Shown: piece after piece, positions 1 through 16,944 of the stretch
How the letters are laid out: each line of letters begins with the position of its first letter
Position numbering within the stretch: the first letter of the stretch is position 1
NCBI GenBank assembly: GCA_039591655.1
Contig: JBDHDE010000005.1
Coordinates: 1 to 64,000, forward strand
DNA: 64,000 bases
Reading direction: 5' to 3'
DNA from: Gemmatimonadota bacterium
GTDB lineage: Bacteria > Gemmatimonadota > Gemmatimonadetes > Gemmatimonadales > GWC2-71-9
Notes under the pieces: generated by a model
The model's input: only the letters and a program-made list of their open reading frames with translations
The model's database searches: none
Told to the model about the DNA's origin: nothing
Position numbers and translations under genes: made by a program

Positions 1-2211
1 TCGGCAGGTGAAGCCGTTGTGGCGGACTTTGGCATTGCCAGGGCCATCTCCGAAGCCGGTGGAGAACACCTCACCGAGACGGGCATCAGTATCGGCACCC
101 CGGCCTACATGAGTCCTGAACAAGTAAGCGGGGAGCACAAGCTCGACGGACGGAGTGACATCTACTCGTTGGGCTGCGTGTTGTATGAGATGCTGGCAGG
201 CGAGCCGCCCCATACCGGACCGACGGCGCAGGCGATCATTGCCAAGCGGATCACGGAGCCCGCCCCTCGCGTCACGACGGTGCGGGAAACGGTGCCGGGC
301 CCCGTGGCGGACGCGCTGGAGCGAGCGCTCGCCAGACTCCCGGCGGATCGTTTTTCGACCGCGGACCGCTTCTCCGAAGCCGTCACCGGACCCGCAGCGG
401 CACCGGCCGCCGAGGTGTCTACCGCCAGGAGACCGGCGGTGCGGCGCAGCGTGATTGCGTACGGCGCCATCGCCATCCTCGCAATCATTGGAGCCTACAC
501 TGTAATCTCTCGCACTGTCAGCCCGCCCGAGCCTGTAGCGGCGGCCGAGCTGCCCAGGCTCGCGGTGCTCCCGTTCGACAACCTCGGCAGTCCCGAGGAC
601 GACTACTTCGCAGACGGAATCACCGAGGAGATCACCAGCAGGATCGCGGAGATCAGCGGGCTGCGAGTCATCTCACGTCAGAGCGCTATCCAATACAAGA
701 GTTCCGAGAAGGCGCTTCGGGATATCGGCGAAGAACTGAGCGTTGATTACGTGTTGGAGGGCACGATACGCACTGACCGAGCACCGGATGGTTCTGGTCA
801 GGTTCGGGTGACACCCCAGCTAATACGGGTTTCCGACGACGCCCATCTGTGGACGGATCGTTACACCGCCGATCTGATTCCCGGCGAGATCTTCCGCATT
901 CAGGAGCAGATCGCTAACCAGATCGCAGGGGCGTTGGACGTCACGCTGCTCGAGCCTGAACGCCGACGCCTGGCGGCAACGCCAACGGACAACCTGGAGG
1001 CGTACGAGTACTACCTGCGGGGCAATGACTACTTCGGTCGAAGCTATGAAGAACAGGACTTGCAGATTCCCATCCAAATGTACCAAAAGGCAATCGATCT
1101 GGACCCGGATTTCGCGTTGGGCTACGCTCGACTCTCGAGGGTTCATTCGAGGATGTGGTGGTTCTTCTATGACCGCACCCAAGAGCGTCTGGCCATGGCA
1201 AGGGAAGCGGTGGACCAGGCACTGAGGCTCGATCCCGATCTGCCCGAAGCACATGAGGCCATGGGCTTGTACTACTACCACGGTCATCTGGATTATGACC
1301 GTGCCCTGGCCGAGTTTGCCATCGCACGGAAAAGCCAGCCCAACAGCAGCGACCTCTTTGCGGCTACTGGCTATGTGCAGCGGCGGCAGGGGAGAATGGT
1401 CCAAGCACTGGCTAATCTTGAGAAGGCTGCAGAGCTTGATCCGCGCTCTGCAATGATGGCCCACGAGGTCGCCAGTACTCACTTCCTCTTGCGCGACCCT
1501 GTGGAGGCGGGGCGGGCCTTTGACCGCGCAATCTCCCTGAGTCCCGATTGGGCCCCTCCCTATGCCGGCAAGGCGGGGTGGCTACACCTCCGTCTGGAAG
1601 GCAGCACGGAAAGGGCGCGGGCGGTGCTGGAGGAGGCCCGAAGCGTTGGCCTCGCAGAGGCCCCCAGGATCGCATATCGGTCGGTCTTGCTCGAGATATG
1701 GGATGGAGACTATCAGCAGGCGTTGGAGCGGCTTGCTTTGGTTTCGTCAGAAGTTCTCTATGAAGAGCAAATGCTCTACCTGCCCAAGGCCCAACTACAT
1801 GCCCAGACTTATGGTCTCATGGGGAACCGGCAGCTCGAGCAAGCCTATTATGACTCGACGCGTAGCATTGTGGAGACCAGGATTCGGCAGCATCCCGATG
1901 ATTCTCGGTATCGGAGTGCGCTGGGCATTGCCTACGCTGGTCTCGGTCGCAAGGAAGAGGCGATCCGCGAAGGGGAGTTGGCCGTAGAGCTGCTTCCCAT
2001 GAGCAAGGAAGCCTGGCGAGGTGCTCATAGGTTGGAAGACCTGGCGCGTATCTACACGATGGTGGGCGAGTACGACGCCGCTATCGACCAACTGGAGGCC
2101 CTGTTGGCCGTTCCCTCGCCCATGTCCGTTCCAATGCTCAGGATCGATCCCACCTGGAATCCCCTGCGCGACCACCCGCGGTTTCAGCGGCTGCTGGCGG
2201 GCGACAGATAG
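1..2211 (+). CDS. Ser/Thr protein kinase, 5'-truncated at window edge (kinase subdomain VII onward), followed by TM helix, TolB-N-like region and TPR repeats
   Basis: Frame continues upstream of the ORF-track start at 19 (SAGEAV|VADFGIAR = DFG motif; GTPAYMSPEQ activation segment). After a TM segment comes the LPFDNLGSPEDDYFADGITEEI motif seen in TolB-N-like domains of membrane kinases/cyclases, then TPR-like repeats. Paralogous to the CDS at 7185-9464. Confidence 0.8.
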   Translation, partial: SAGEAVVADFGIARAISEAGGEHLTETGISIGTPAYMSPEQVSGEHKLDGRSDIYSLGCVLYEMLAGEPPHTGPTAQAIIAKRITEPAPRVTTVRETVPGPVADALERALARLPADRFSTADRFSEAVTGPAAAPAAEVSTARRPAVRRSVIAYGAIAILAIIGAYTVISRTVSPPEPVAAAELPRLAVLPFDNLGSPEDDYFADGITEEITSRIAEISGLRVISRQSAIQYKSSEKALRDIGEELSVDYVLEGTIRTDRAPDGSGQVRVTPQLIRVSDDAHLWTDRYTADLIPGEIFRIQEQIANQIAGALDVTLLEPERRRLAATPTDNLEAYEYYLRGNDYFGRSYEEQDLQIPIQMYQKAIDLDPDFALGYARLSRVHSRMWWFFYDRTQERLAMAREAVDQALRLDPDLPEAHEAMGLYYYHGHLDYDRALAEFAIARKSQPNSSDLFAATGYVQRRQGRMVQALANLEKAAELDPRSAMMAHEVASTHFLLRDPVEAGRAFDRAISLSPDWAPPYAGKAGWLHLRLEGSTERARAVLEEARSVGLAEAPRIAYRSVLLEIWDGDYQQALERLALVSSEVLYEEQMLYLPKAQLHAQTYGLMGNRQLEQAYYDSTRSIVETRIRQHPDDSRYRSALGIAYAGLGRKEEAIREGELAVELLPMSKEAWRGAHRLEDLARIYTMVGEYDAAIDQLEALLAVPSPMSVPMLRIDPTWNPLRDHPRFQRLLAGDR

Positions 2212-2532: not shown

Positions 2533-3864
2533 TCAGGCCGCCACCGTGCGCCGTATGAACTCGAAGCCCAAGGTGGCCAACTCCTCGAGCAGCGGCCTGT
2601 ACAGTTCCGGCAGGGTCGGCGGCATCCTCGCTCCTGAGGCCTGAATCTCACCCTCCAGCACCAGCCGCGCGGCGATGGCCGCCGGCAGGGCGACGGCACG
2701 GGACATCGCGGTCGCGCCATCGGGAATCCCCTCGACGTGCATGGTGGCCAGCCGTCGTTCCTTGCGGCCGCCGGGGAACTCCGCCAGGACGTCGACGTGG
2801 AGGAGGATCATGTCCCGCTCGCCGGGCGCGTAGGACATTCTCGCCAGCATCCGGTCCAGCAGCACATCGAGACAGGTCCCCTTCGAGACGGCGACCGGCC
2901 GGTCCTCGAACAGCCCCAGCCACTTCAGGCGATGGATGATGTCTGCCAGCCTGTCGAGCCCCAGGTACCGCGCCACCGCCGACTCGACGTCGTCGGTCGG
3001 GCCGGCCTCGACGAGCGAGGCCATGAACTGGCGGTAGCTCATCCCCTCGAAGCTCCGCTCGCGCTCCGAGTCGATCAGTCCCAGGGCCAGCATGTTGCGC
3101 ATGTTGTTGCAGTAGCCGGAAAAGCGCAGGAGTCCGCGGTAGAACGAGACCTTCTCCCTGTCGAGTCCGAAGGGCTCGACGTACTTCTCAACGTCCTTGT
3201 TGGGGTAGGACTCGAAGGTCCCCAGCCCCTCGATGTCCAGCAGCCAGAAGTTCTCGAACAGCTTGTCCCCCGGTACCTCGATCTTCTTCCCCTCCTCGAG
3301 GTATGCACCGGGCGTCTGGGCGGCCACGAACACCGTCCTCGGGTCCCAGGAGAACTTGTATCCCATGGGATTGCGATTGGACTCGAACGCCGGCAGTCCG
3401 CTGCCGTACGAGTTCAGGCGGATCACGCGTCCTCCCTCCTGCCGGATCTCGTCGAGCACCAGCTGGGTTCCCATGTGGTCCATTCCCGGTACCTCGCCCA
3501 GCTCGTTGAGAATCAGGACACCCTTCTGCCGGGCCTCCTCGTCCAGGGCCATGAGCTCGGGGATCTCGTAGGCGGTGGTCAACATGTGCGTGCCGTGCCG
3601 CAGGCACGCCCGCGCGACGTGAATGTGGACCGGCTTCGGCACCATGCTGATGGCCAAATCTGCTTCGCGGATTACCTCGTCGAGGATATCGGGCTCGTCC
3701 GTCGACCATCGAACCGCCTTGCCACCCGCCCGGTCCGCGATGACGTCCTCCGCCTTGGAGAGCGTTCGGTTCGCCACCGTCACGAAGTAACCGCACGTCT
3801 CCATGAGGTAGTCGACGAGCGGCCTCGTCATCCAACCCGCGCCGATGATCGCAACTTTCTTCAT
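2533..3864 (-). CDS. Saccharopine dehydrogenase family protein (Lys9/carboxynorspermidine-dehydrogenase-like), NAD(P)-binding
   Basis: N-terminus MKKVAIIGAGWMTRP (Rossmann GxGxxG) and the overall sequence resemble saccharopine dehydrogenase family proteins. Start chosen at ATG 3864 with SD GGAGGAG 5 nt upstream; the ORF-track start at 4011 is rejected as an N-terminal extension. Confidence 0.6.
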   Translation of the reverse strand: MKKVAIIGAGWMTRPLVDYLMETCGYFVTVANRTLSKAEDVIADRAGGKAVRWSTDEPDILDEVIREADLAISMVPKPVHIHVARACLRHGTHMLTTAYEIPELMALDEEARQKGVLILNELGEVPGMDHMGTQLVLDEIRQEGGRVIRLNSYGSGLPAFESNRNPMGYKFSWDPRTVFVAAQTPGAYLEEGKKIEVPGDKLFENFWLLDIEGLGTFESYPNKDVEKYVEPFGLDREKVSFYRGLLRFSGYCNNMRNMLALGLIDSERERSFEGMSYRQFMASLVEAGPTDDVESAVARYLGLDRLADIIHRLKWLGLFEDRPVAVSKGTCLDVLLDRMLARMSYAPGERDMILLHVDVLAEFPGGRKERRLATMHVEGIPDGATAMSRAVALPAAIAARLVLEGEIQASGARMPPTLPELYRPLLEELATLGFEFIRRTVAA

Positions 3865-4065
3865 GCTGCTCCTCCGGTTCTCTCGCTCCGGGGGCCGCTG
3901 GAGCCTCTGTGCGTTCGACATAGTGATCTTCAGCCGCCGACTTGGTCCTTGATCATATCGACGCTCCGCGCCCCCGGACGCTCTGTAAGAATACGGCTGG
4001 TAGGCCAACACGGCCAGAAGGCGTCATCGCCCGTGCAGGACGACGCGCGGTGCTGGGATCCGACG

Positions 4066-4104
4066 GACCCAGACTGAGACCCACCGAAGATTGGCCGATC
4101 CGTG
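4066..4104. repeat. Short fragment (5' conserved block only) of the repeat family: CCCAGACTGAGACCCACCGAAGATTGGCCGATCCGT
   Basis: Near-identical to the 5' blocks at 2308, 5314, 12806 and 16384. Confidence 0.7.
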
Positions 4105-5125: not shown

Positions 5126-5204
5126 TTGACAAGCCTGCACACTCTCCATAAGAGTCCTTTGCTTGTCAAAGAACACTCTAAGGGAGAGTCCGCAGTTTGT
5201 CAAG
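5126..5204 (-). promoter_or_regulatory. Operator/promoter region with three TTGACAAG / CTTGTCAA half-sites and two ~33-bp direct repeats upstream of the membrane-protein/wHTH operon
   Basis: TTGACAAG at 5126-5133, CTTGTCAA at 5162-5169, TTGTCAAG at 5197-5204. Direct repeats TTTGACAAGCCTGCACACTCTCCATAAGAGTCC and TTTGCTTGTCAAAGAACACTCTAAGGGAGAGTCC. Likely binding sites for the co-encoded wHTH regulator (autoregulation). Confidence 0.4.
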
Positions 5205-5298
5205 ACATCGACCATTCGACTCGCATAACTATATGGTCTACAACGGCTTGCGGCGCGCGGCTTGTGGGGCCGGTCCTGTGACAAGAGTTGTTGTACCA

Positions 5299-5864
5299 GG
5301 GGACAGAAGCAGGCCCAGACTGAGACCCACCGAACATTAGCCGATCCGTAAGTGGCTTGCGTGACGGGGCTTATGAGGGGTGTGTCGGGTTATCTTACCA
5401 GCTCCTAAGGCTGGCGCGTCTACCAGTTCCGCCACGGCCGCGGGATGGTCAAAACTCAGGTCTAAGCCGTTGGGAGCATAGGGATTCCGCCCGGAGGACG
5501 GGGCTCCTCGGGGTTCTGGGGCGGGTCCAGGTCGACCTTCAGATGTGGTGTTTTCCCGCACGGTCGGCGGTTTGGTGGGGCATTCTCCTGTATCTCCGCG
5601 GGTCCAGATGCGGGTCCACCTCTACCGAATGTCCCACAACGACACTCGATGCCCCCGAACAGTCCTGGCCGCGCGGCTCTCTGAATTGCAGATTGGCAGG
5701 ACAAAGATCCTCAGGGCCACTCCCCGTCCGCCCAGCGTTTGGGCGGATTAGGCTGCGTGCACGGTATGCGTCCGCTTTCCAGCCTAATCCCAGGGTAGGG
5801 TCGTGTTGTGCTGCGAACCACGCGGCGTTGGGGTGTGGACGATGCAGTCTACTACTAGTTAGGC
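5299..5864 (+). repeat. Full-length copy 1 of the ~570-bp repeat family (5' block GGACAGAAGCAGGCCCAGACTGAGACCCACCGAA ... 3' module GGGCGGATTAGGCTG...CAGCCTAATC...GATGCAGTCTACTACTAGTTAGGC)
   Basis: Aligns block-wise with 16367-16933 (~75-80% identity, conserved blocks separated by variable stretches). The 3' module contains the hairpin GATTAGGCTG/CAGCCTAATC and ends in the attC-like core GTTAGGC (5858-5864). Confidence 0.8.
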
Positions 5865-5925
5865 AGCGGGCGACCGGCCGGCGAGGATCAAGAGTACGTC
5901 ACCCTATCCTTGGAGGACTCCGAAC

Positions 5926-6285
5926 ATGGCTAGACACGTGTCGTGGATCCTCGAACTCAACATTCAGCCGGGTCGCGAGAAGGACTTTCGCGGCCTGATG
6001 GAGGAAATGGTCAGCGCGACGAGAGCGAATGAGCCTGGAACTCTCGCCTACGAGTGGAGCACCAATGCGGACGGCACGGTCTGTCACATCTCTGAGCGAT
6101 ACGTCGACTCGGCCGCCGTGCTGCCCCATCTGGGGACGTTTGGCGAGAAGTTTGCGAGCCGCTTCCTAGACATCCTCAAGCCCGTGCGCTTCGTGGTGTA
6201 CGGCTCGCCAAGCGCGGCGGTCCAGGATGCCCTAGCTGGCTTCAACCCTGTGTATATGGAGCCTGTGGGCGGTTTCAGCCGATAG
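5926..6285 (+). CDS. ABM (antibiotic biosynthesis monooxygenase)-fold protein; putative gene cassette
   Basis: 119-aa ferredoxin-like ABM pattern (ILELNIQPGREKDFRGLMEEMVSATRANEPGTLAYEWS...). SD GGAGGA 8 nt upstream of ATG. Followed by an attC-like site. Confidence 0.5.
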   Translation: MARHVSWILELNIQPGREKDFRGLMEEMVSATRANEPGTLAYEWSTNADGTVCHISERYVDSAAVLPHLGTFGEKFASRFLDILKPVRFVVYGSPSAAVQDALAGFNPVYMEPVGGFSR

Positions 6286-6323
6286 GCGCGCAGCTCGCCG
6301 TTCGCGTGTTTGCGAGCCCGCTG

Positions 6324-6464
6324 CCTAGCACGCGCATGCAGCTGCGGAGGCGCGTGGGATCTAAAGGAAGTTGTGATTGTGCGCCAGGTGAGATCCAGAA
6401 CAGATGGCTTTCCCTGCAGCTGCCGGCCCATCGCGCCCGCAGCTCATGCGCGAAGTCGTTAGGC
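6324..6464 (+). other. attC-like recombination site (141 bp): GCCTAGCacGCGCATGCAGCTGCGG ... CCCGCAGCTCATGCGCgaagtcGTTAGGC
   Basis: The ends are inverted repeats of each other with asymmetric bulges. The 5' core GCCTAGC is near RYYYAAC and the 3' core GTTAGGC is exact GTTRRRY. Lies immediately after the ABM ORF and immediately before the next ORF (ATG 6480). Confidence 0.55.
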
Positions 6465-6479
6465 TGCGACGGGCGTAAG

Positions 6480-7163
6480 ATGGCGCACCACGGCACGCTT
6501 TCCCATGACGAGGCCCGGGCCTTCTACGACCACTTCGGTTCGAAGCAGGATTGGCAGCGCTTCTACGAGGGGCCGGCGCTAGTCGAGCTCATTCGGCACG
6601 GGTCCTTCGCAGAGGCGAGTGCCGTCGTGGAGTTCGGCTGCGGCACAGGGCGGCTGGCCGAGCTGTTGTTACAGAATCATCTGCCGGATAGCGCGACGTA
6701 TCTCGCGCTCGATATCAGCTCTACTATGGTCTCCCTCAGCCGGAACCGGCTCGCCCGCTTCGGCAACCGGGTCCGGGTTGCGCAAACCGGTGGGAGTCCG
6801 CTATTGGGCGAGCCATCCGCATCGTGCGACCGATTCATATCCAGCTATGTGGTGGATCTGCTGGCGGTTGATGATATCACGACGCTGATCGCAGAGGCGC
6901 ATCGACTGCTCCGTTGGAGTGGGCGGATTGGGTTCGTAGGGCTCACGCACGGTGCGACAGCTGCGGCGCGGCTCGTTGAGCACCTGTGGGTAGCCGTACA
7001 CCGCATACGCCCATCCTGGGTGGGCGGCTGTCGACCCGTGTCTCTAACTGATTTCGTAGGCTCGGAGTGGCAGGTGACTCATCATGGCGTGGTGACCAGC
7101 TTTGCGATATCGTCGGAGGTCATCGTGGCACAGAAGGTACCTCGAGTCACAGCGCGCGAGTAG
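6480..7163 (+). CDS. Class I SAM-dependent methyltransferase
   Basis: Motif I VVEFGCGTGRLAELL and overall Rossmann MTase layout. Start at ATG 6480 just after the attC core; the ORF-track start at 6306 would overlap the attC site. Confidence 0.65.
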   Translation: MAHHGTLSHDEARAFYDHFGSKQDWQRFYEGPALVELIRHGSFAEASAVVEFGCGTGRLAELLLQNHLPDSATYLALDISSTMVSLSRNRLARFGNRVRVAQTGGSPLLGEPSASCDRFISSYVVDLLAVDDITTLIAEAHRLLRWSGRIGFVGLTHGATAAARLVEHLWVAVHRIRPSWVGGCRPVSLTDFVGSEWQVTHHGVVTSFAISSEVIVAQKVPRVTARE

Positions 7164-7184
7164 CCTCCCCCTACCCCTGAGCCG

Positions 7185-9464
7185 ATGCCCCGCGCACATT
7201 GGGTGGGCATGGCAGACTTTGTGGAACTCCTGCGGGCCGCGCTACGCGGTCGCTACTCGATCGGACGCAAGCTTGGCGAGGGCGGCATGGCTGTCGTCTT
7301 TCTCGCGAAGGACGAGCGGCATGACCGGAGCGTCGCACTCAAGGTGCTCCGGCCGGATCTGGCCTCCGAGGTCGGCGCGGAGCGATTCTTGAGGGAGATC
7401 AAGATCGCGGCCAAGCTGACCCACCCGCACATCCTCCCCCTGTATGACTCCGGCGAGGCCGACGGCTTCCTGTTCTACGTGATGCCCCTCATGGAGGGAC
7501 GGTCGTTACGGGAGCGCGTTGACAAGGAACGGCAGCTTCCACTGGATGAAGCAGTTCGCATCACGCAGGAGGTCGCGTCGGCGCTCGACTACGCGCATCG
7601 CCATGGTGTCATTCACCGGGACATCAAGCCAGCGAACATCTTGCTCCACGAAGGGGCGGCCATGGTGGCCGACTTCGGGATTGGCAAGCTGGTGAGCGCA
7701 GCCGAGGGCAAGATCACACAGACCGGGATGGCAATCGGCACGCCAGCGTACATGAGTCCGGAACAGGCATCTGCGGATTTCGAAGTGGATGGCCGCAGCG
7801 ATCTCTACAGCCTCGGATGCGTCCTGTACGAGATGCTGTCCGGTGAGCCGCCATACACTGGACCCACCGCGCAGGCGGTGATCGCCAAGCGGCTCGGCGC
7901 GCCGGTTCCGCACGTCAAAGTGGTTCGTGACGTCGCCGATCCGGTGGACGCGGTCGTCACGAGGGCGCTCGCGCGCACGCCGGTCGACCGATTTGCCTCA
8001 GCAGCCGAGTTTGCCGCGGCGCTGCGGGATGCACAGAGCGGAACGTTGCATACTCCGGAGGCTGTGCTGGCCGTCGGACAGGCCGGTAGCGATATCAAAT
8101 CCGTTGCGGTGCTGCCGTTCGCCAACTTGAGCGCGGATCCCGAGAACGAGTACTTCAGCGACGGCATGACTGAGGAGATCATCAACGTTCTCGGCAAGGT
8201 ACCGGGCATCCAGGTTGCGTCACGCACGTCGAGTTTCGCCTTCAAGGGTAAGGACGTCGACGTGCGACAGATCGGAGAGAAACTGGGTGTTGGGATCGTG
8301 CTCGAGGGAAGCGTACGCAAGGTGGGCCAGCGGATCCGCATTACCACGCAGCTCACCGATGTCACCAACGGCTACAACCTCTGGAACGAGACGTACGACC
8401 GGCAACTGGAGGACGTGTTCGCCATTCAGGACGAGATCTCCCGAGCGATCGCGGACGCCCTCAAGGTCAAGCTCGTCGGCGATATGGGGAGACGGATGGC
8501 CCCCGCGCCGGAGAACCTCGAAGCGTACAACCTCTACCTAAAAGGACGCTTCTTCTACAACAAGTTCACCGAGGTCGATCTCCGGCGAGGCGTCGAGCTG
8601 TTTGAGCACGCCTTGAAGGAGGCCCCGAAGTATGCTCGTGCCCACGCCGGTATCGCGGACTGTTGGGCCTATCTCGCGGACGATTGGGTGGCCCCAGACG
8701 AGGCGTACCCCAAGGCGAAAGCATCCGCGATGCGCGCGCTCGACCTCGAACCGTCCCTCGGAGACGCGTTCACCGCGCTGGGCAAGGTGCTGTGCTGGTA
8801 CGAGTGGGATTTCGCGGGTGCCGAACGGGAGCTGACGAGTGCGGTGAACCTGAACCCGAACTCGGCCGAAGCGCGCTTTGTCTTGGGCAGCGCGTTGCCG
8901 TGCGTCGGCAAGCTCGACAGGGGACTCGAGGAGCTGCGGCAGGCGCTCGTACTCGATCCGCTCGCCCCGCTGTTCAGTCGGTGGGTGGGCCGCTACCTGC
9001 TCTTCTCGGGCGACTACGACGGCACGATCGAGCAGAGCGAGAAGACGCTGGAGCTGGACCCCAACTACTTCCACTCGTTCCTTGATATCGGCTCCGCCTA
9101 CCTCGGCAAGGGCGCTCCCGAACACGCCCTCGAGTGGTACCGGAAGGGCCAGTCACTGCCGTCCAGCGTCCGCTCGTATGATGCACACCTGGTTCGTGCA
9201 CTTGCGGCCACGGGCCAGCAGGAAGAAGCACAAGCGATCCTCGAGCGGCTCGAAAAGGAGGCTCAGGAGCACTACCTCAGATCTGAAGTGCTCGCGATGG
9301 GCTATGCCGCCGTGGGGGACTTCGATGGGGCGTTCGCCGGCCTCGAGCAGGCAGTTCGGTCGCGCTCGGGAGGGCTCATCTTCATCCACCTGGATCCTGG
9401 CTACGAACCGCTGCGGACGGATGCGCGGTTCGCCAGGATCGTCGAGCAGGTGGGGGTCAGGTAG
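7185..9464 (+). CDS. Ser/Thr protein kinase with C-terminal TM, TolB-N-like region and TPR repeats (complete paralogue of the kinase at 1-2211)
   Basis: Gly-rich loop LGEGGMAVVF, VALK Lys, HRDIKPANILL catalytic loop, DFG, APE (GTPAYMSPEQ). Then LPFANLSADPENEYFSDGMTEEI motif and TPR-like repeats. Confidence 0.85.
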   Translation: MPRAHWVGMADFVELLRAALRGRYSIGRKLGEGGMAVVFLAKDERHDRSVALKVLRPDLASEVGAERFLREIKIAAKLTHPHILPLYDSGEADGFLFYVMPLMEGRSLRERVDKERQLPLDEAVRITQEVASALDYAHRHGVIHRDIKPANILLHEGAAMVADFGIGKLVSAAEGKITQTGMAIGTPAYMSPEQASADFEVDGRSDLYSLGCVLYEMLSGEPPYTGPTAQAVIAKRLGAPVPHVKVVRDVADPVDAVVTRALARTPVDRFASAAEFAAALRDAQSGTLHTPEAVLAVGQAGSDIKSVAVLPFANLSADPENEYFSDGMTEEIINVLGKVPGIQVASRTSSFAFKGKDVDVRQIGEKLGVGIVLEGSVRKVGQRIRITTQLTDVTNGYNLWNETYDRQLEDVFAIQDEISRAIADALKVKLVGDMGRRMAPAPENLEAYNLYLKGRFFYNKFTEVDLRRGVELFEHALKEAPKYARAHAGIADCWAYLADDWVAPDEAYPKAKASAMRALDLEPSLGDAFTALGKVLCWYEWDFAGAERELTSAVNLNPNSAEARFVLGSALPCVGKLDRGLEELRQALVLDPLAPLFSRWVGRYLLFSGDYDGTIEQSEKTLELDPNYFHSFLDIGSAYLGKGAPEHALEWYRKGQSLPSSVRSYDAHLVRALAATGQQEEAQAILERLEKEAQEHYLRSEVLAMGYAAVGDFDGAFAGLEQAVRSRSGGLIFIHLDPGYEPLRTDARFARIVEQVGVR

Positions 9465-9554
9465 CGGTCACCGCACCCGTGTTGCCCCAACCAGCACTGC
9501 CTCGCCAAGCCAGTACCCCCCGAGCTGCTCGAGTCTGAGCGACGCTGCTAACGT

Positions 9555-9716
9555 ATGTCGAGACTCTTGGCGGTGATCGGCGCGACCGTTGGGTGCACCC
9601 TAGGGTGGTGGCTGGGTGCGCAGGTTGGCTTCATGACCGCATTCCTGGTAGGCGTCGTCGGAACGGCGCTCGGCGTCTACATAGGCCGCCGTATTGCGCG
9701 AGATTACCTAGAGTGA
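9555..9716 (+). CDS. Small (53 aa) glycine-zipper membrane protein, not in ORF track
   Basis: Hand translation: MSRLLAVIGATVGCTLGWWLGAQVGFMTAFLVGVVGTALGVYIGRRIARDYLE. Paralogous to the 43-aa protein at 20420-20551 (shared GW..G...G zipper and C-terminal R-E/D-Y-L-E/D). Confidence 0.4.
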   Translation: MSRLLAVIGATVGCTLGWWLGAQVGFMTAFLVGVVGTALGVYIGRRIARDYLE

Positions 9717-9744
9717 ACGGGCCGATGGCTCCGGTTGCCGTGCC

Positions 9745-9804
9745 GCCTAACCCACGCCCGCAGCTGATGCGCGAAGTTGTCAGGCAGAACACAGACCGTT
9801 AGGC
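9745..9804 (+). other. attC-like site (60 bp): GCCTAACccacgCCCGCAGCTGATGCGCGAAGTtgtcaggcagaacacagaccGTTAGGC
   Basis: Exact RYYYAAC (GCCTAAC) and GTTRRRY (GTTAGGC) cores, mutually complementary, at the classic 59-be length. Shares the CCCGCAGCTSATGCGCGAAGT motif with the site at 6324-6464. Confidence 0.6.
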
Positions 9805-9933
9805 GGCGGCGGTCGTCCACCTTGGTATCGCGTGTGAACCTATTTCGATTGCAGGAAGAGGCTTTTCAGGTTCATCAGGAACGTTGGTTCTAGCGCATCA
9901 GATTCGTTGATTTCGATTGTTAAGGAGCAGATT

Positions 9934-10305
9934 ATGGACCTCGGTGCATTCTCGATCAGCTTGGCAGTGAAGGACATCGGAGCATCGAAGGAGTTTTACG
10001 AGAAGCTCGGTTTCGAAGTCTTCGGCGGCGATGCCTCGCAGAACTGGCTGATCATGAAGAATGGCGATCACGCGATCGGGCTCTTTCAGGGAATGTTCGA
10101 GAAGAACACCCTGACATTCAATCCTGGCTGGGACAGTAACGCCCATGAGCTCGATACCTACACAGATGTCCGCGAGCTACAGCGTCATCTGAAGGAGCAG
10201 GGAGTAGAGCTGATCAGCGAGGCGGACGAGAGCACCTCCGGACCCGCGAGTTTTATCGCAGTGGATCCTGATGGAAACCCGATCCTCGTCGATCAGCATG
10301 TCTGA
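9934..10305 (+). CDS. VOC (glyoxalase/bleomycin-resistance/dioxygenase) family protein; putative cassette
   Basis: [29 protein letters not shown] is a VOC beta-alpha-beta-beta-beta module. Start at ATG 9934 with SD AAGGAG 6 nt upstream; ORF-track start at 9907 rejected. Confidence 0.6.
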
Positions 10306-10327
10306 GCCATTGCACGCGCCCCTGGGC

Positions 10328-10449
10328 GGATTAGGCTGCACGCACGTTATGGGCGACAGCTCGCAGCCTGTTGCCGAGGTATGTTTGGTGTTAGACGGAG
10401 TATTCGGCAGGGCGGCAGTACAGATGACTCAGTCTAATACTAGTTAGGC
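10328..10449 (+). repeat. Stand-alone copy of the repeat family's 3' module (GATTAGGCTGC...GCAGCCT hairpin ... GATGACTCAGTCTAATACTAGTTAGGC), attC-like
   Basis: Matches 5746-5864 and 16813-16933. Ends in GTTAGGC (10443-10449); an additional GTTAGAC at 10391-10397. Confidence 0.6.
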
Positions 10450-10507
10450 GGATGCCCGTGCCACTCCGGAGCAGCGCCGACTTCGCTCCCATGCAACCGG
10501 GGCACCT

Positions 10508-10852
10508 GTGATTAACGGCATCCACGCGCTCATCTATGCCCAGCAGGCCGAAGAGGTCCGTGCTTTTTTTCGCGACACGCTCGGCTTGCCATCAGTCGAT
10601 GCCGGCAAGGGCTGGCTGATCTTCGCCCTGCCGCCGGCCGAACTAGCGGTCCATCCTGCCGACGAGGGGGCCTACGAGCTGTATCTCATGTGCGACGACC
10701 TCCACGCCACTATGGCGGATCTAGAGCGGCGAGGAGTCACGTTCTCTCAACCGGTCACCGAGCAGTCATGGGGGCTGGTCACCTCCATCCGCCTGCCGGG
10801 TGGCACGGAAATGCGGCTTTACGAACCACGCCATCCCTCACCGCTGACGTAG
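10508..10852 (+). CDS. VOC (glyoxalase-like) family protein, GTG start; putative cassette
   Basis: 114 aa; HALIYAQQAEEVRAFFRDTLGLPSVDAGKGWLIFALPPAELAVHP is the VOC fold. Second VOC in consecutive units. Confidence 0.5.
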   Translation: MINGIHALIYAQQAEEVRAFFRDTLGLPSVDAGKGWLIFALPPAELAVHPADEGAYELYLMCDDLHATMADLERRGVTFSQPVTEQSWGLVTSIRLPGGTEMRLYEPRHPSPLT

Positions 10853-10933
10853 CAGGCGGGCCCCGGAGTCATCTGACTCTGGATCACTGGACCCGCTCCG
10901 CACTCTCCATGTTGCCTACCCAAAGGCCCGCCC

Positions 10934-10989
10934 TTGACACCCCACTCACCATATTGTACTATATGACCATAACACTAGTATTATAGTAC
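10934..10989 (+). promoter_or_regulatory. Sigma70-like promoter (TTGACA-17-TACTAT) overlapped by palindromic operator GTACTATA-N18-TATAGTAC upstream of the GntR gene
   Basis: -35 TTGACA at 10934-10939, 17-bp spacer, -10 TACTAT at 10957-10962. Inverted repeat GTACTATA (10956-10963) / TATAGTAC (10982-10989), the GT..AC-type palindrome typical of GntR operators. Confidence 0.5.
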
Positions 10990-11006
10990 GCAAGGGATAC
11001 GGAACC

Positions 11007-11381
11007 TTGGAATTCTCCATCGACCCGAAGAGCGGCGTCCCCTTTTACCGGCAGATCATCGAGCGGGTCAAGTTCGGCATCGCCCGGGGTCTTCTCACGC
11101 CGGGGGACCAACTCCCCACGGTCCGGCAGCTCGCCACGGACTGTTCGGTCAATCCCAACACCGTCATCCGCGCCTACCGACAAATGGAGATCGAGGGCGT
11201 GCTGGACACGCAGCAGGGTTCCGGGACTTTCGTCAGCGACCGCCGGCCGGAGATCGACGATCTCGAGCGCCGCCGGATGCTCGACCAGATCCTCACCGAA
11301 ATGCTGGCCCGCGCCTCTGGGTATGGGTTCACGGTCGACGAGGTGTTCGAGGGGCTGCACCAGCGAAGGGAGGAGTCATGA
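11007..11381 (+). CDS. GntR-family transcriptional regulator (small, YhcF/YtrA-like), TTG start
   Basis: N-terminal wHTH: GDQLPTVRQLATDCSVNPNTVIRAYRQMEIEGVLDTQQGSGTFV (GntR signature). Stop overlaps the next gene's start (ATGA). Confidence 0.7.
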   Translation: MEFSIDPKSGVPFYRQIIERVKFGIARGLLTPGDQLPTVRQLATDCSVNPNTVIRAYRQMEIEGVLDTQQGSGTFVSDRRPEIDDLERRRMLDQILTEMLARASGYGFTVDEVFEGLHQRREES

Positions 11382-12487
11382 TCCACCGAACCTCCAAACA
11401 CCACCGTCCCGGGAAGTCGCAATTTGGGATCTCCCTTGAGAGATTCGCCACTTCGAGCCGGGCCGACTTTCGATTCGCACCCCTCAACGCCCTGTTGCTG
11501 GTGGCAATGTTCGTGATCGGGCTGACGGTGCACCTGAACGTACACGAGTTCACGATAAAGGCTGTCTACCTCTCCCTTGGATCGGCGCTGGGCCTCACTA
11601 TCCTCATTCGTTGGACCCAGGTGTGGGAAGCCGTCGTCATCCTCGGCACCGCCGTCTGCCTGACGATCTTCCTCGAGCTGCGTCCGAACAGCGAGATCCT
11701 GCTGGCGACCGCCATCGTGGCGCTGCTCGTGTCTCCCGCTGTCCAGATCGCCTACCAGTGGGAGCGGGCCGTGCTGCTCCGCTTCGGCAAGTTTTGTGGA
11801 TTGCGCAAGTCGGGTCTGTTTCCCGTCGTGCCGGTGATCGACAAGGTGGCCCAGTTCGTGGACCAGCGAATCCGGGTAACCGACTTCAGCGCCGAGACGA
11901 CCCTCACCGCCGATACGGTCCCGGTCAACGTGGACGCCATCGCGTTCTGGATGGTGTGGGACGCGGAGAAGGCGGTCCTGGAGGTGGAGCAGTTCGACGA
12001 CGCGGTGATCATGTCGGCACAGACGGCCCTGCGGAACGCCATCGGGAAGAATGACCTGGCAGTGCTGCTTTCCGAGCGTGACCGGTTGGGCAGCGAGATT
12101 CAGAAGCTGCTCGACTCGAAGACCAACGCCTGGGGCATCACCACCGAGGCAGTGGAGATCCGCGACATCATCATTCCCGAGGCTCTCGAAGATGCCATGT
12201 CGCGCCAGGCCCAGGCGGAGCGGGAGCGCCAGAGCCGCATCATCCTCGGCACTGCCGAGACCGAGATTGCGGAGAAGTTCGCCAAAGCGTCGGAGCATTA
12301 CCAGGACAACAGCGTCGCCCTGCATCTGCGGGCGATGAACATGGTCTACGAGGGATTGCGGCAGAAAGGCTCGATGGTCATCGTGCCCTCCACCGCAGTG
12401 GAGAGCATGGGCCTGGGAGCCCTCGGCGGGTTGACCGCCCTTGGCCGTGACGTGACTCCGCAAGACGCAGACCACGCCGAACCATGA
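11378..12487 (+). CDS. SPFH/band-7 (stomatin/prohibitin/HflKC-like) domain membrane protein
   Basis: N-terminal TM helices, then an SPFH core (PVIDKVAQFVDQRIRVTDF...TADTVPVNVDAIAFWMV...EIRDIIIPEALEDAMSRQAQAERERQSRI). SD GGGAGGAG; translationally coupled to the GntR gene. Confidence 0.7.
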   Translation: MIHRTSKHHRPGKSQFGISLERFATSSRADFRFAPLNALLLVAMFVIGLTVHLNVHEFTIKAVYLSLGSALGLTILIRWTQVWEAVVILGTAVCLTIFLELRPNSEILLATAIVALLVSPAVQIAYQWERAVLLRFGKFCGLRKSGLFPVVPVIDKVAQFVDQRIRVTDFSAETTLTADTVPVNVDAIAFWMVWDAEKAVLEVEQFDDAVIMSAQTALRNAIGKNDLAVLLSERDRLGSEIQKLLDSKTNAWGITTEAVEIRDIIIPEALEDAMSRQAQAERERQSRIILGTAETEIAEKFAKASEHYQDNSVALHLRAMNMVYEGLRQKGSMVIVPSTAVESMGLGALGGLTALGRDVTPQDADHAEP

Positions 12488-12542
12488 GCACGCAGACAGT
12501 TAGGTGCCCGGTTAGGCACGGCAACACGAAAGGGGGATCAAC

Positions 12543-12746
12543 ATGAAGCCGGCTGCAACGGTAGCCATCGTATTCCTTCTCCTGGTCGCGCTCGTGCATT
12601 TGCTCCGCCTGCTCTTCGGCGTTGCGATCACCGTGAGTGATACGACCATTCCAATGTGGGCGAGTGTCCTGGCCGTCATGGGCCCTGGAGCTCTGGCAGT
12701 GTGGTTGTGGCGCGAACAGTCCGCACCCCGCACGCCGACCGCCTAA
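12543..12746 (+). CDS. Small (67 aa) two-TM membrane protein
   Basis: MKPAATVAIVFLLLVALVHLLRLLFGVAITV... is hydrophobic. Its TAA stop lies inside the GCCTAAC core of the following attC-like site. Confidence 0.4.
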   Translation: MKPAATVAIVFLLLVALVHLLRLLFGVAITVSDTTIPMWASVLAVMGPGALAVWLWREQSAPRTPTA

Positions 12747-12795
12747 CGCGCGGCGGGCACGCGGGCGTTTCAGACGGAATGTCATGACGTTGGGC
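12741..12795 (+). other. attC-like site (55 bp): GCCTAAC ... GTTGGGC
   Basis: Exact RYYYAAC and GTTRRRY cores. The stop codon of the upstream ORF is embedded in the 5' core, as is common in integron cassettes. Confidence 0.45.
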
Positions 12796-12838
12796 AGAAA
12801 GCGGGCCCAGACTGAGACCCACCGAAGATTGGCCGATC
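12792..12838. repeat. Fragment (5' conserved block) of the repeat family, starting inside/right after the attC-like 3' core: GGGCAGAAAGCGGGCCCAGACTGAGACCCACCGAAGATTGGCCGATC
   Basis: Near-identical to the 5' blocks at 5299, 16367, 4066 and 2308. Confidence 0.7.
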
Positions 12839-12994
12839 ACCCGGGCTCTCTTTCTGAAGGGAGCTGCGGTACTGAAGCTCAAGGTGGCACAGCGCCCGGC
12901 CCCATGCCGGGCGCTGTTGTTTCCGGTCCAAGAATCCCGACGAGTGCTCGCCTTCACACACCAGTCGGCGCGGGCAAACCTCGCCTCTCGCGCT

Positions 12995-13960
12995 TCAGTT
13001 CGTGATCGTCGCCGTTCCGGTCGGCAAGGGACTCAAGGCGGTGATCGTCCGCTGGTCCGTCGGCCCACCATCGCCAAATGGATTCCCAAACGGCTTGAGT
13101 TGAAACGGTACGGCCGCGAGCGTCGCCTCGCCTTCGTCGAACGTGGGTTCGATCGAGATTACGTGCATCCACTCGCTGTCGCCGGTCACCTGGTCGTCCC
13201 CATTGAAGTCGAAGGGAAGCGCAATACCCCCGGGCACTGTATTTCCGTTGTCCATCACGAAGTCTCCGCCGGGGAAGGGTGGGCCGGCGCCCAAATCACC
13301 GGGCGCACCCGACAACGGCCCGGCGGCGTCACTGTCCCGTGTGCTCACCGTGCCGCCCGCCTGAGGCTCGTACTTACCGTAGGAGATGGCAGTCTGCATG
13401 GCGGTACCCGGCCTGTGAACGACCCAACCCTCGTAGACCCAACCGTCGGTGAGCGGTGGAAGCGTGACTGATGGGTCGGGTGCGCCGGAGGGATCGAGCA
13501 GCCAGATGCCCCCGTCGTCATCGCTGCCGGTCGTGGTAGTCGGCGTCAGCAGCACGTGGGTGCCCGGGGTCGTCGCGAAGTCGGCCGAACTGCTCACAGT
13601 GACGAACCCGAGGGCCGAAAGCGTCGCCATCCCGCTGGAGAACGCTCCGCCCAGGAGCTTCTGATCGGATGGGATGTCGTCAGTGTCGCCAGGCGGTTCG
13701 ACAGTGAGCACGAACATCATGGGCTCGGCGATCGGACTGGTGAACGTGTGCTGCCCGGAGGCTTCGAGATCGAACTTGCCCGTCGAGAACGGCGATCCAC
13801 TCGCGTCGATGACCCAACCTTCGTACGTACCCTCGGTCGCCGCGTCGAGGGCTGCGAGATCTTGGAACGCGACGTCGAGCGTCGCCATCTCTGGTCCTTC
13901 GTCTCCGCAGGCGACGAGTGCCGCGATCGCGAGGACGCCGACGTATCGCTTGAGCAACAT
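12995..13960 (-). CDS. Hypothetical lipoprotein (lipobox LVAC), Gly/Asp/Thr-rich secreted protein
   Basis: Signal peptide MLLKRYVGVLAIAALVACGDEG. SD GGAGGT 6 nt upstream of ATG. Confidence 0.5.
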   Translation of the reverse strand: MLLKRYVGVLAIAALVACGDEGPEMATLDVAFQDLAALDAATEGTYEGWVIDASGSPFSTGKFDLEASGQHTFTSPIAEPMMFVLTVEPPGDTDDIPSDQKLLGGAFSSGMATLSALGFVTVSSSADFATTPGTHVLLTPTTTTGSDDDGGIWLLDPSGAPDPSVTLPPLTDGWVYEGWVVHRPGTAMQTAISYGKYEPQAGGTVSTRDSDAAGPLSGAPGDLGAGPPFPGGDFVMDNGNTVPGGIALPFDFNGDDQVTGDSEWMHVISIEPTFDEGEATLAAVPFQLKPFGNPFGDGGPTDQRTITALSPLPTGTATITN

Positions 13961-14040
13961 GGGTTACCTCCGCACGAGATGAGAGTGTACGGAGGAAGCT
14001 GGTTTGGGCGCGACAGTGTTTGAAGGGAAGACTCCGAAGG

Positions 14041-14054
14041 TTAGAGCTTTCTAA
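14041..14054. promoter_or_regulatory. Palindromic box TTAGAGCTTTCTAA (copy 1), ~85 bp upstream of the lipoprotein gene and just downstream of the HK stop
   Basis: Exact 14-mer also at 16191-16204 upstream of the response-regulator gene. Extended here to GGTTAGAGCTTTCTAACC (7-bp arms). Confidence 0.45.
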
Positions 14055-14061
14055 CCTGCCT

Positions 14062-15465
14062 TTAATCTCCGGCCGGAAGCCAAAGCACGAAACGACTGCC
14101 TTTGTTCGGCGTGCTCTCCACCGATATGCTTCCGGCTTGGAGCTGTGCGAGCATGCGGGCGATGGTGAGACCCAAGCCCGCACCTCCGTGGGCACGACTG
14201 CGCGATCCCTCCACCCGTTCGAAGCGGTCGAAGACTCGGTCGAGGTCGTTCTCCGCAATCCCTACACCGGTGTCCGTGACGGAGACTCCGACCATGCCGT
14301 CCCTCCGCTGGAGCTCGAATAGGATGCTCCCCCTTGAGGTGTAGCGGACTGCGTTGGACGCCAGGTTCAAGAGGATTTGCCGCGTGCGATCGGCGTCACC
14401 GAGCGCCTCCGCGGAGTCTGTGAGGTCGGCCTTCACATCGATGTCGCGCCCCGATGCCATCGCTTGGGTTACTTCCTCCACATCCCGCGCGACTTCGGCG
14501 AGATCGAACGGCTGCAGCGCGAGCTCGAGCTGCTGGTTCTCACCACGAGCGATGAGGAGCAGGTCCTCGATCATCTTCGTTGTCTGATCGACCTCGCGCG
14601 CAATCTCCCCAAGTGCCTCACGCATCTCTTCGAGCGACCGGTGCTCAGCTAGCGCCCACTGGGCTTGCGCACGCAGATGTGTGAGTGGCGTTCGCAGTTC
14701 GTGACTCGCGTCTGCGGTGAATGCCTCGAGGGCAGCATTGGCTCGCTCCACGCGGGCGATCAGACGATTGATCTCGTCGGCCAGCTGGGTGACCTCGGTC
14801 AGACCCGTAGGGCTGGTGACTCGCTCAGAGAGATCCCGCGGATCGATCTGTTGCGTCTCTTCGACTGTCCGCGCGAATGGGATGAGCGCCGCGAGGATCG
14901 TGCGGCGCGTTGCGCGCTGTGCGACTAACGCTGCCGCTGGCAGGAGTGCGAGGGCCACGATACCCAGGCCGAGCATCGCAACCAGGTATGGGACTCGACT
15001 GCCGGCGACGAAGATGTCGAAGTCGCCCGCACGCCGATGGCCGACCCGGTAACGCCATCGACCGCGCTCGGCGATCACGGTCACCAGCTGCCGCCGCACC
15101 TGGTTGTGTGACGCATCCGGTGCCACTCGGACCTCTTTAGCCGGCATCGTCGGCGACAGGAAGTACACGGTGCGGTCGCCTCCCTCGGTCGCTATGGCGC
15201 GAGTGATCAGAAAGGGTTCGCTCATCTCCAAGAGCTGATCCGCCAGCATAGCCGGGGCGACGGACGTGCGCTCCCCGCCGGGATCCGCGTACAGCCCCAG
15301 GAGCGACTGAACGACGTCGGCGGAGTGATCGAGCGCCCGGCGGAGCGAGAGTTCACTCACCAATGCCGAGGCGCCGATCACGATGACTGCGTACACGATG
15401 AGGGTGTGCCAGAGGACGCGGCTCAAGCTCGCAGCCAGCCGTTGACGGAGGCGAGGTTCCATCAT
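14062..15465 (-). CDS. Sensor histidine kinase (HAMP + HisKA + HATPase_c), 2 TM
   Basis: H-box FTADASHELRTPLT, N/G boxes (LNLASNAVRYT, DTGVGI, GGAGLGL). Start at ATGATG overlapping the RR stop (ATGATGA). Confidence 0.8.
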   Translation of the reverse strand: MMEPRLRQRLAASLSRVLWHTLIVYAVIVIGASALVSELSLRRALDHSADVVQSLLGLYADPGGERTSVAPAMLADQLLEMSEPFLITRAIATEGGDRTVYFLSPTMPAKEVRVAPDASHNQVRRQLVTVIAERGRWRYRVGHRRAGDFDIFVAGSRVPYLVAMLGLGIVALALLPAAALVAQRATRRTILAALIPFARTVEETQQIDPRDLSERVTSPTGLTEVTQLADEINRLIARVERANAALEAFTADASHELRTPLTHLRAQAQWALAEHRSLEEMREALGEIAREVDQTTKMIEDLLLIARGENQQLELALQPFDLAEVARDVEEVTQAMASGRDIDVKADLTDSAEALGDADRTRQILLNLASNAVRYTSRGSILFELQRRDGMVGVSVTDTGVGIAENDLDRVFDRFERVEGSRSRAHGGAGLGLTIARMLAQLQAGSISVESTPNKGSRFVLWLPAGD

Positions 15466-16136
15466 GTCGCCTCCAGCCGATAGCCCACCCCGCGCACGGT
15501 GCGGATTCTCGCTCCCGCCGTGTGGAGATCGAGTTTCTTTCTCAAGTAGTTGATGTACACGTCCACCACGTTCGTCTCCGGGTCGAAGTGGTAGTCCCAC
15601 ACGGCTTCGGCGATGCGCGATCGGGAGACCGTGCGGCCGGCGTTTCGCATCAAGAACTCGAGGAGCGCCAACTCGCGGGGGCTCAAGTCGACGGTGCGGT
15701 CGGCGCTCGAGACACGCCGCTGTAACGTATCCACTCGTAGCTGTCCGACTTCGAGTGTCGTGTCCCGATGCCGTAGCTTGGCGCGCCGAATCAGGGCAAC
15801 GATGCGAGCCATGAGTTCGGGAAGATCGAACGGCTTGGTCAGGTAATCATCCGCACCGCCTTCCAGGCCGCGGACCCGATCGTCGAGATCGTGGCGTGCA
15901 GTGAGGAGCAGAATCGGCGTCGTCACGCCTCGCTGCCGCAGCTCGGCCACGACGCTGAACCCGTCGCGCCCCGGCAGCATCACATCAAGCACGATGCAGG
16001 CGTAGTCGCCTTTCAACGCGCGGTCGAGCCCCCGGTCACCGGATTCCGCGTAATCAACGGCGTAACCCTCTTCACGCAACGCCTTGCGCAGAAACGCGCG
16101 CAGGTTTCGGTCGTCTTCCACCAACAGAATCTTCAT
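15462..16136 (-). CDS. OmpR-family response regulator (REC + winged-helix)
   Basis: MKILLVEDD...DVMLPGRDG receiver, with C-terminal trans_reg_C (LSPRELALLEFLMRNAGRTVSRSRIAEAVW...GVGYRL). Confidence 0.85.
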   Translation of the reverse strand: MKILLVEDDRNLRAFLRKALREEGYAVDYAESGDRGLDRALKGDYACIVLDVMLPGRDGFSVVAELRQRGVTTPILLLTARHDLDDRVRGLEGGADDYLTKPFDLPELMARIVALIRRAKLRHRDTTLEVGQLRVDTLQRRVSSADRTVDLSPRELALLEFLMRNAGRTVSRSRIAEAVWDYHFDPETNVVDVYINYLRKKLDLHTAGARIRTVRGVGYRLEAT

Positions 16137-16190
16137 GAGTAAGGAAGGTAGGACTCTGCTCGGGGCCAGGGCAACGGCGAGAGCCCTCGA

Positions 16191-16204
16191 TTAGAGCTTT
16201 CTAA
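16191..16204. promoter_or_regulatory. Palindromic box TTAGAGCTTTCTAA (copy 2), ~60 bp upstream of the RR-HK operon
   Basis: Exact 14-bp match to 14041-14054. Both copies sit in promoter-proximal positions of minus-strand genes. Confidence 0.45.
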
Positions 16205-16366
16205 TGACTGGAAGCGGAAGGGAGCTGTGGTGCTCTCAACCGTCCGTCGCAACCCGCACCAACAACTGGTAATCGGGAAGCCCGCTATGTTGGCCCGAGT
16301 CTGCGTCTCATAAGCGCCAGCGCTAGCTACCGGTCATGGGGTGCCGTAGCGGGAGCTATCCTGCCG

Positions 16367-16933: not shown

Positions 16934-16944
16934 GCGGGGGTCAG

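Follow-up and report, generated by a model that had tools for sequence, protein, structure and literature searches.

A three-gene interval in a Gemmatimonadota cassette array as a probable composite of separately occurring pieces

Genes, flanking sites and the surrounding array

The DNA analysed here (the window, 64,000 nucleotides of contig JBDHDE010000005.1 from a Gemmatimonadota bacterium) carries at 6465-9804 a block in which genes for a methyltransferase (MTase), a protein kinase with TPRs and a 53-aa protein are co-oriented between a GTTAGGC at 6458-6464 and a GCCTAAC at 9745. A first-pass annotation had treated this interval as one unusually large unit between two attC-like sites. The near-identical contigs with this locus come from metagenome-assembled genomes (MAGs) of one study, including GCA_039584735.1, GCA_039587675.1, GCA_039586605.1, GCA_039590415.1 and GCA_039591055.1; several of that study's MAGs encode precisely these kinase and MTase proteins. 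The features of the block are given below; loci used for comparison are designated by L numbers.

6323..6464, + strand: full-length attC of the preceding ABM cassette, 142 nt; left boundary of the block
6465..7145, + strand: MTase cassette body with the class I S-adenosylmethionine (SAM) methyltransferase open reading frame (ORF) 6480-7163, from Pfam and homology to L013
7141..7148, + strand: 8-nt direct repeat CTCGAGTC, left copy, where MTase and kinase segments meet; read from the sequence
7163..9536, + strand: kinase unit, with a 45-nt leader (7164-7208), the ORF to 9464 and a 3' tail in common with L010 to 9536
9528..9535, + strand: 8-nt direct repeat CTCGAGTC, right copy, found after the kinase in L010 as well
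9534..9758, + strand: small membrane-protein unit, the 53-aa ORF 9555-9716 with 21 nt upstream and 42 nt downstream
9745..9785, + strand: truncated attC with inverse core GCCTAAC, 3' arm CCCGCAGCTGATGCGCGAAG and degenerate core GTCAGGC; the 5' arm and the centre are missing
9786..9804, + strand: 12-nt spacer and second core GTTAGGC (9798-9804), after which the glyoxalase unit begins

Pfam searches and the covariance scan described below agree with the earlier description of three co-oriented genes with no attC between them. The MTase matches Methyltransf_25, Methyltransf_11 and Methyltransf_12, all above cut-off, and has the SAM motif VEFGCGTGR in its translation; it is a class I SAM-dependent methyltransferase. 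The second gene (7185/7209-9464) encodes a Hanks-type Ser/Thr kinase with a Pkinase match of 169.2 bits, intact catalytic motifs VALK, HRDIKPAN, DFG and SPE, a central alpha/beta region and TPRs. It had been called a kinase-TM-TolB-N-TPR protein; the kinase and TPR assignments stand, while the transmembrane segment does not (the maximum over Kyte-Doolittle 19-residue windows is 1.24) and TolB_N is sub-threshold at 13.8 bits. Translation probably starts at ATG 7209 (751 aa) rather than at 7185, because the relatives mostly have 750-751 aa and the upstream homology behaves as a non-coding leader. With this start, 45 nt separate the gene from the MTase stop, and they consist entirely of kinase leader; the 21 bp originally given holds with ATG 7185. 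The 53-aa ORF has relatives at six metagenome loci (54-91% identity) and can be regarded as a real gene, though the glycine zipper ascribed to it is a sub-threshold match of 16.3 bits against a cut-off of 25.

The GTTAGGC at 6458-6464 proved to be the 3' core of the 142-nt site 6323-6464, which has the inverse core GCCTAGC, a bulged 18-bp stem, complementary arms (GCGCATGCAGCTGCGG and CCGCAGCTCATGCGC) and a variable centre. When species-representative genomes were scanned for the pattern, the same arm turned up in the Gemmatimonadota MAG contigs L020, L022, L029 and L032; among the 13 matches of the scan, the seven outside Gemmatimonadota and one in L030 resemble chance matches within genes. 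Six sites are full length, at 134-146 nt (6323-6464 in the window, three in L020, one each in L029 and L032), and all share a consensus hairpin, with six pairs in the core, an internal loop that is asymmetric, and a stem of 18 bp in which one base is bulged. When 6323-6464 was aligned with the five sites from Gemmatimonadota MAGs (alignment A8), RNAalifold gave 24 consensus pairs, four of them compensatory, and one bulge. The family has the cores, covarying arms, bulged base and variable centre of attC sites. It is linked to an integrase through a related Gemmatimonadota MAG, in which contig L032 carries a partial integron integrase, then a 272-aa ORF and then a full attC. This integrase scores 265.8 bits on TIGR02249 (cut-off 265), though its C-terminal half alone is on the contig, and is 52.7% identical to IntI1 over 182 aa, with the integron-specific insertion present. 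From the covariation and the IntI link we take the flanking sites to be members of a real integron attC family, as had been proposed. A DoxX cassette occurs in L013, L020 and L029 at 92-93% nucleotide identity with different neighbours, and cassettes are thus shuffled from array to array.

A covariance model of this local, lineage-specific attC family (R1, of our own build and distinct from the attC model of IntegronFinder) was run over the entire window with filters off. It matched 6323-6464 at 128.9 bits (a training sequence of the model), 9745-9785 at 20.4 bits, 17458-17492 at 19.9 bits and, weakly, 12741-12795 at 9 bits; the attC of L032 scores 134.7 bits. The window contains nine copies of GTTAGGC or its complement, every one within 5858-17464, against about three expected, and none of 100 shuffles attained nine. 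G+C is about 0.62 at positions 1-18.5 kb and 0.65-0.70 in the rest of the window. Searches by tblastn of the 64-kb window with an IntI1 sequence and with the L032 IntI fragment gave only noise for intI or another tyrosine recombinase. A 600-nt repeat considered as an intI remnant was dropped, as the weak IntI1 match there was not reproduced. The window thus holds no complete integron of intI, attI and array. The R1 hits comprise at least two close attC sites with no intI nearby, and since no integrase is present in the window, its array is a CALIN (an integrase-less attC cluster). Integrons are listed as present in Gemmatimonadota and CALINs are a recognised class (PMC8618304); a literature search combining integron, Gemmatimonadetes and attC returned no paper. 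All assemblies stop 5.7 kb left of the first site, and when contigs were extended leftward toward a possible intI, every assembly ended within the kinase gene 1-2211.

As a separate observation, the MAG assemblies of the locus all break in or next to this first kinase gene or at array repeats (the contig ends concerned are those of L001, L039, L040 and L041), so that what lies to the left of the array is missing from every available assembly.

The right-hand site is a truncated attC. It had been described as a clean 60-bp attC-like site at 9745-9804; R1 instead aligns 9745-9785 (E about 8e-4, 101 of the 142 model positions deleted), with GTCAGGC at its end, then 12 nt and the second core. The aligned stretch belongs to repeat family D8, together with 6434-6464 and 17462-17492. 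The right-hand site folds into a 10-bp terminal stem only, no better than shuffles (z -0.9 and -1.1), with its arms unpaired, and 9745-9785 does not provide the hairpin attC that a cassette has at its 3' end. The second core pairs with GCCTAAC 9745-9751 (10 bp counting flanks) and is probably the remnant of another site. Similar internally deleted sites are found at 17458-17492 and three times in L013, where the other arm is kept. Slippage between the attC arms is a plausible cause of these deletions, because the arms are quasi-palindromic.

At its 5' end the block has the form of a cassette, following GTTAGGC 6458-6464 directly at the G|TTRRRY crossover of the preceding site. A cassette usually holds one promoterless ORF in about 0.5-1 kb, and here three ORFs extend over 3.3 kb, an interval that was rightly considered unusual for a cassette array. 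Within 6465-9744, R1 with filters off found no attC (the best match, 8.3 bits with E 1.4, lies within the kinase ORF). A degenerate attC between the MTase and the kinase, which would make them separate cassettes, was looked for in particular, and there is none.

Separate occurrence of the pieces and the internal junctions

In L013 the MTase stands alone as a cassette of about 0.73 kb, between short attC sites on both sides and followed by the DoxX cassette. The two MTase proteins are 87% identical, and the DNA is 87-88% identical over 6432-7145 only. Homology begins within the upstream core (TTAGGCTGCGACGGG in both) and stops at 7145; the last four MTase codons and the stop (7149-7163) fall past it. 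Because the ORF in L013 leads straight into an attC of its own, the window copy reads as an ordinary cassette of about 0.73 kb whose own attC is missing, the kinase segment occupying the place of the attC that follows the gene in L013. Four distinct contexts of MTase relatives (L013, L014-19, L042-44 and L045; 63-87% amino acid identity) were compared; three are cassette-array-like, and a Pkinase neighbour is present in none of the four. Small genes standing alone represent the MTase family in many phyla, at about 55% identity. In the 90% MTase cluster all members end ...KVPRVTARE, and no empty-site allele is among them. One assembly has a 25-aa in-frame deletion in the MTase (P0241).

The kinase has nucleotide relatives in L011 (96%), L010 (94%), L046 (94%), L012 (90%) and L004/L005 (89%). 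The homology is limited to about 7154/7163 through 9464-9477, and L010 alone reaches 9536. These five contexts are unrelated to the window and to one another, and the flanks of the relatives include a tRNA gene, a GH9 glycosidase, adenine deaminase and MTTB genes, and an amidohydrolase. Neither the MTase nor the small ORF was found in any of the five, and the MTase is in none of the six contexts of kinase relatives at 78-96% nucleotide identity. The attC model scan covered five kinase-relative, four MTase-relative and four small-ORF loci, and its matches were in L013, L020, L022, L029 and L032 only. L004, L010, L011 and L012 have no GTTAGGC or GCCTAAC and no R1 match; L046, which was outside the R1 scan, is flanked by ordinary genes. 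Within its conserved 45 nt, the kinase leader carries the motif CCCTACCCCTG-N12-GCGCACATT and a G-rich ribosome-binding site (RBS). The motif occurs once in the window and is absent upstream of the window's other kinases. To these the kinase is only 33-42% identical in amino acids, so that a duplication from one of them, as had been suggested, finds no support. More than 8000 relatives were found at E<=1e-30, mostly of about 750 aa, the few named ones being annotated Gemmatimonadota or Gemmatimonadales. G+C at third codon positions (GC3) is 0.80 in the kinase, 0.72 in the MTase and the small ORF, and 0.84-0.95 in core genes. The kinase is intact throughout the population variants.

The small membrane-protein unit is matched by L033 at 91% nucleotide identity over exactly 9534-9758, behind a different gene. 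In the MAG allele L039 the small ORF has a 44-nt frameshifting deletion, at about 9619-9662 of the window.

Homology to L010 takes the kinase tail as far as 9536, and homology to L033 opens the small-ORF unit at 9534, so that the two pieces meet within 3 nt. The internal junctions, at about 7146-7163 and at 9534-9536, are not at attC cores, and there is no GTT core at either. At least five separately deposited MAG assemblies run across both of them (about 7150 and about 9535) at 99.6-100% identity, and the spanning contigs include one of 4.35 kb that covers this block alone. An equal repeat near two points 2387 nt apart, as formed by the two copies of CTCGAGTC, is expected in 1.5% of random placements in the window. 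Deletion of one repeat copy together with the insert would give an MTase ending ...KVPRV-TGA, 16 nt before the ATG of the small ORF, with GGTACCTCGAGTCTGAGCGACGCTGCTAACG as the predicted pre-insertion junction. The pair more likely reflects microhomology than a target-site duplication, because the right copy also follows the kinase in L010. Nor does the segment look like a transposon or insertion sequence: the kinase is its sole ORF, and no terminal inverted repeats were seen by eye.

Origin of the block

We favour the reading in which three pieces that also occur separately make up the block, within a decaying cassette array, with a probability of roughly 0.7. The region 5.7-18.5 kb is a cassette array of integron type on the chromosome of a Gemmatimonadota bacterium; no integrase lies nearby, and many of the sites are decaying. 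In it, a single-gene MTase cassette (6465 to about 7145) would have lost its own 3' attC, and a segment of 2.3-2.4 kb with a self-contained chromosomal-type kinase gene and its leader would have taken the place of that site. The small membrane-protein unit abuts the kinase segment at 9534-9536, with the truncated attC behind it. Insertion or fusion would have come about by illegitimate, microhomology-associated recombination, CTCGAGTC bracketing the segment; capture by an integrase is unlikely, because neither junction is at a G|TT core. The composite is probably immobile and most likely frozen, because the right-hand site lacks one arm (the L-box side) and reads GTC in place of GTT where its core aligns. 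Transcription of the array probably takes in all three genes, and a further promoter may lie in the kinase leader. A promoter and terminator scan of 5800-10500 gave no promoter-like site and one terminator-like site, inside the kinase ORF, fewer than in shuffles.

Several points weigh against this reading. L013 is the one stand-alone copy of the MTase cassette found with this attC family. No empty-site allele, with the MTase directly before an attC or before the small ORF in the same array, was found, and for this reason we can only infer whether attC loss or kinase insertion came first. The 1.5% chance level of the 8-nt repeat is suggestive only, L010 has the right copy in its kinase tail as well, and the 8 nt 7146-7153 have no counterpart in any of the three donors. 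The other kinase contigs are either paralogues in one genome or orthologues in different genomes. Finally, 9745-9804, with its perfect cores and 10-bp stem, may retain residual function.

The array itself belongs to known kinds, combining a CALIN with an attC family of chromosomal-integron type. Like CALINs (PMC8618304), it has co-oriented small genes divided by attC-type hairpins with GCCTAAC...GTTAGGC cores, no intI within 64 kb, and genes typical of cassettes (ABM, glyoxalase, GNAT, MTase, hydrolase). It differs from them in that many sites are internally deleted to 35-41 nt, in having three sites of a second type that resemble the putative attI of a related integron, and in the host-like multi-gene units embedded in it. 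Sedentary chromosomal integrons have a homogeneous, lineage-specific attC family, as in the repeats of Vibrio cholerae. The window resembles them in its 134-146-nt attC family, whose arms are conserved and which several MAGs of one lineage have in common, and in the DoxX and MTase cassettes shuffled between arrays. In contrast to them, the integrase is seen only on another contig or MAG (L032), where it is co-oriented with the cassettes and not divergent.

Fused gene cassettes that arose by loss of the intervening attC have been described for class 1 integrons, and the block resembles such a fusion with a non-cassette gene inserted. Its MTase and small ORF are cassette-derived and share one downstream site, and the attC between them is gone; on the other hand, a 2.4-kb non-cassette gene with its leader lies at the fusion point, and the remaining site is truncated. 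The kinase, for its part, is like the Hanks-type Ser/Thr kinase-TPR family of Gemmatimonadota in its N-terminal Pkinase domain, intact motifs and C-terminal TPRs, and unlike it in that this copy is inside a cassette array.

The kinase subfamily (at least 89% nucleotide identity) is found in six unrelated contexts, and its homology breaks off sharply, at the leader on one side and at the stop codon on the other. Taken with the leader, the homology ends within a few bases of the same leader start and 0-72 nt past the stop. These copies could have arisen by gene-sized duplication or transfer, or by conversion between paralogues. It is conceivable, though we consider it doubtful, that the unit of about 2.3 kb from leader to stop is itself a gene-sized mobile or repeatedly transferred module, caught in the act of entering an integron array, where a gene of the chromosome would be turning into part of a unit with attC cores at its two ends. 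Its transcript-like boundaries would fit an RNA-mediated (retro-copy) or other gene-copying route; gene conversion between paralogues is an ordinary explanation and is equally open. Were the unit independently mobile, this would bear on how genes enter the cassette pool.

Another unlikely origin has the kinase at its ancestral chromosomal place, with cassettes inserted on either side of it by off-target integrase action and the array growing around it. CALINs can indeed arise via off-target cassette insertion (PMC8618304), the composition of the kinase is nearer to that of host genes than is that of its neighbours, and the array contains a second host-like unit without an internal attC (GntR-SPFH, GC3 0.84-0.86). 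Off-target insertion would, however, leave an attC 3' of the MTase, where none is present, and a GTT core is wanting at both junctions. The cassettes on the two sides also belong to one array under a single attI-like site, and no kinase relative has any flank in common with the window.

That the block is a genuine three-gene cassette with 9745-9804 as its attC, moved by attC x attC or attC x attI recombination, we regard as improbable. It has in its favour the absence of an internal attC, the left boundary exactly at a core, the perfect inverse core 9745-9751 and core 9798-9804 with their 10-bp stem, and the existence of two-ORF cassettes (PMC8618304). Against this, the full block is seen only in near-identical MAG contigs of one population and does not recur whole elsewhere, and the right-hand site lacks its second arm and has GTCAGGC as the core that aligns with the family. 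What is more, the MTase has an attC of its own in L013, and the parts occur apart from each other (the MTase in L013, the kinase in five contexts, the small ORF in L033), with sharp breaks of homology inside the block, contrary to the proposal that it had been mobilised as a unit via attC.

A selected operon in which the MTase and the kinase, perhaps with the small membrane protein, form a functional module such as methylation-coupled signalling is very improbable. The genes are co-oriented with a gap of 21-45 nt, no terminator-like site separates them, and the arrangement is kept in all MAGs of the population. Nevertheless, the pairing postulated in the first-pass annotation is encountered in none of the four MTase-relative and none of the six kinase-relative contexts, across many phyla the MTase family consists of small genes that stand alone, and the neighbourhood comparisons gave no evidence that the three proteins work together. 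The lack of MTase-kinase pairing in those contexts, together with MTase and small-ORF alleles that are disrupted while the kinase is intact, argues against a selected three-gene module and in favour of relaxed selection on the cassette genes.

An assembly chimera made by mis-joining contigs at a repeated kinase gene can hardly be credited: kinase paralogues do break assemblies, all contigs end inside the kinase 1-2211 and several end near the array, but both junctions are spanned in the separately deposited assemblies described above and this kinase copy is unique in sequence, its nearest relative being 96% identical.

The locus documents a cassette array, an attC family and an associated integrase in uncultured Gemmatimonadota, and it illustrates modes of array decay, namely internal deletion of attC hairpins, cassette fusion and invasion by ordinary host genes. 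For annotation, it cautions that an interval between two attC cores is not necessarily one cassette.

Other sites, repeats and units of the array

A second type of site, about 125 nt long, is present at 5740-5864, 10323-10449 and 16806-16931, in L022 at 555-715 and in L032 at 1215-1375 (minus strand). It has a hairpin GGATTAGGCTGC...GCAGCCTAATCC and ends ...CAGTCTAATACTAGTTAGGC. These sites align over their full length with the stretch of L032 between the intI stop and the first cassette; because of this alignment they may be of attI type, and the window would then have three array heads. One copy lies directly 3' of the glyoxalase gene 9934-10305, which has no attC. In L032 itself (JBDGYO010000511.1, 233-2049, minus strand), intI, the putative attI, the 272-aa ORF and the attC are all co-oriented. 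This intI, upstream of its cassettes, is the sole integron integrase found for the attC family. We take its co-orientation with the cassettes to be the 'inverted' arrangement of Treponema-type integrons.

The interval 10450-12517 is a second multi-gene stretch without an internal attC, in a pattern like that of the kinase block. A glyoxalase-like ORF (GC3 0.74) is followed by the GntR-SPFH operon, whose GC3 is host-like (0.84-0.86) and which has a promoter-like sequence of its own and a palindromic operator-like sequence at 10935-11000. The interval closes with a double core, GTTAGGTGCCCGGTTAGGC (12503-12517). In L002, the glyoxalase gene that follows the kinase block has a shortened start (117 aa called, against 123), its sequence diverging just past ATG 9934, at about 9936 of the window.

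A non-coding repeat of about 470 nt occurs in three copies (2265-2520, 5272-5739 and 16340-16805) with 76-80% identity and frameshifting indels between copies; two of them lie directly upstream of an array head. On its minus strand it contains what appears to be the 5' two-thirds of a tRNA-Leu (5381-5441; Rfam tRNA 19.3 bits, sub-threshold). ARAGORN gave no match to this stretch, and copy 1 has a different anticodon loop. A permissive Rfam scan of 5150-5900 yielded this one sub-threshold tRNA-like match only; over the window as a whole, ARAGORN and Rfam at gathering thresholds returned none.

A 43-nt direct repeat with the core GGCCCAGACTGAGACCCACCGAAGATTGGCCGATC is present five times (2300-2342, 4061-4103, 5307-5349, 12799-12841 and 16375-16417), with no further copies in the 64 kb. 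It divides the region into modules: saccharopine dehydrogenase, a helix-turn-helix gene with a gene of no assigned family, cassette array 1, an anti-sigma factor/histidine kinase/response regulator group, and cassette array 2. The repeat may represent an att-like core, or else an intergenic repeat of local extent.

A conserved RBS-like motif with a start codon behind it (AAAGGAAGTCGTTGATATGAG) is present in the central regions of most full-length attC sites of the family, at 6362-6385 in the window, at 3681-3708 and 5167-5190 in L020, and also in L029 and L022. It may point to a small ORF, or to a signal for translation, within the recombination site. Where the last cassette ends (abhydrolase_3, 17538-18434), 18450-18476 consists of a left attC half alone, GCCCAAC AGGCGCATGAAGCTGCGGGG. 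Devoid of a right arm or core, it is the apparent right end of the array, and G+C rises beyond 18.6 kb.

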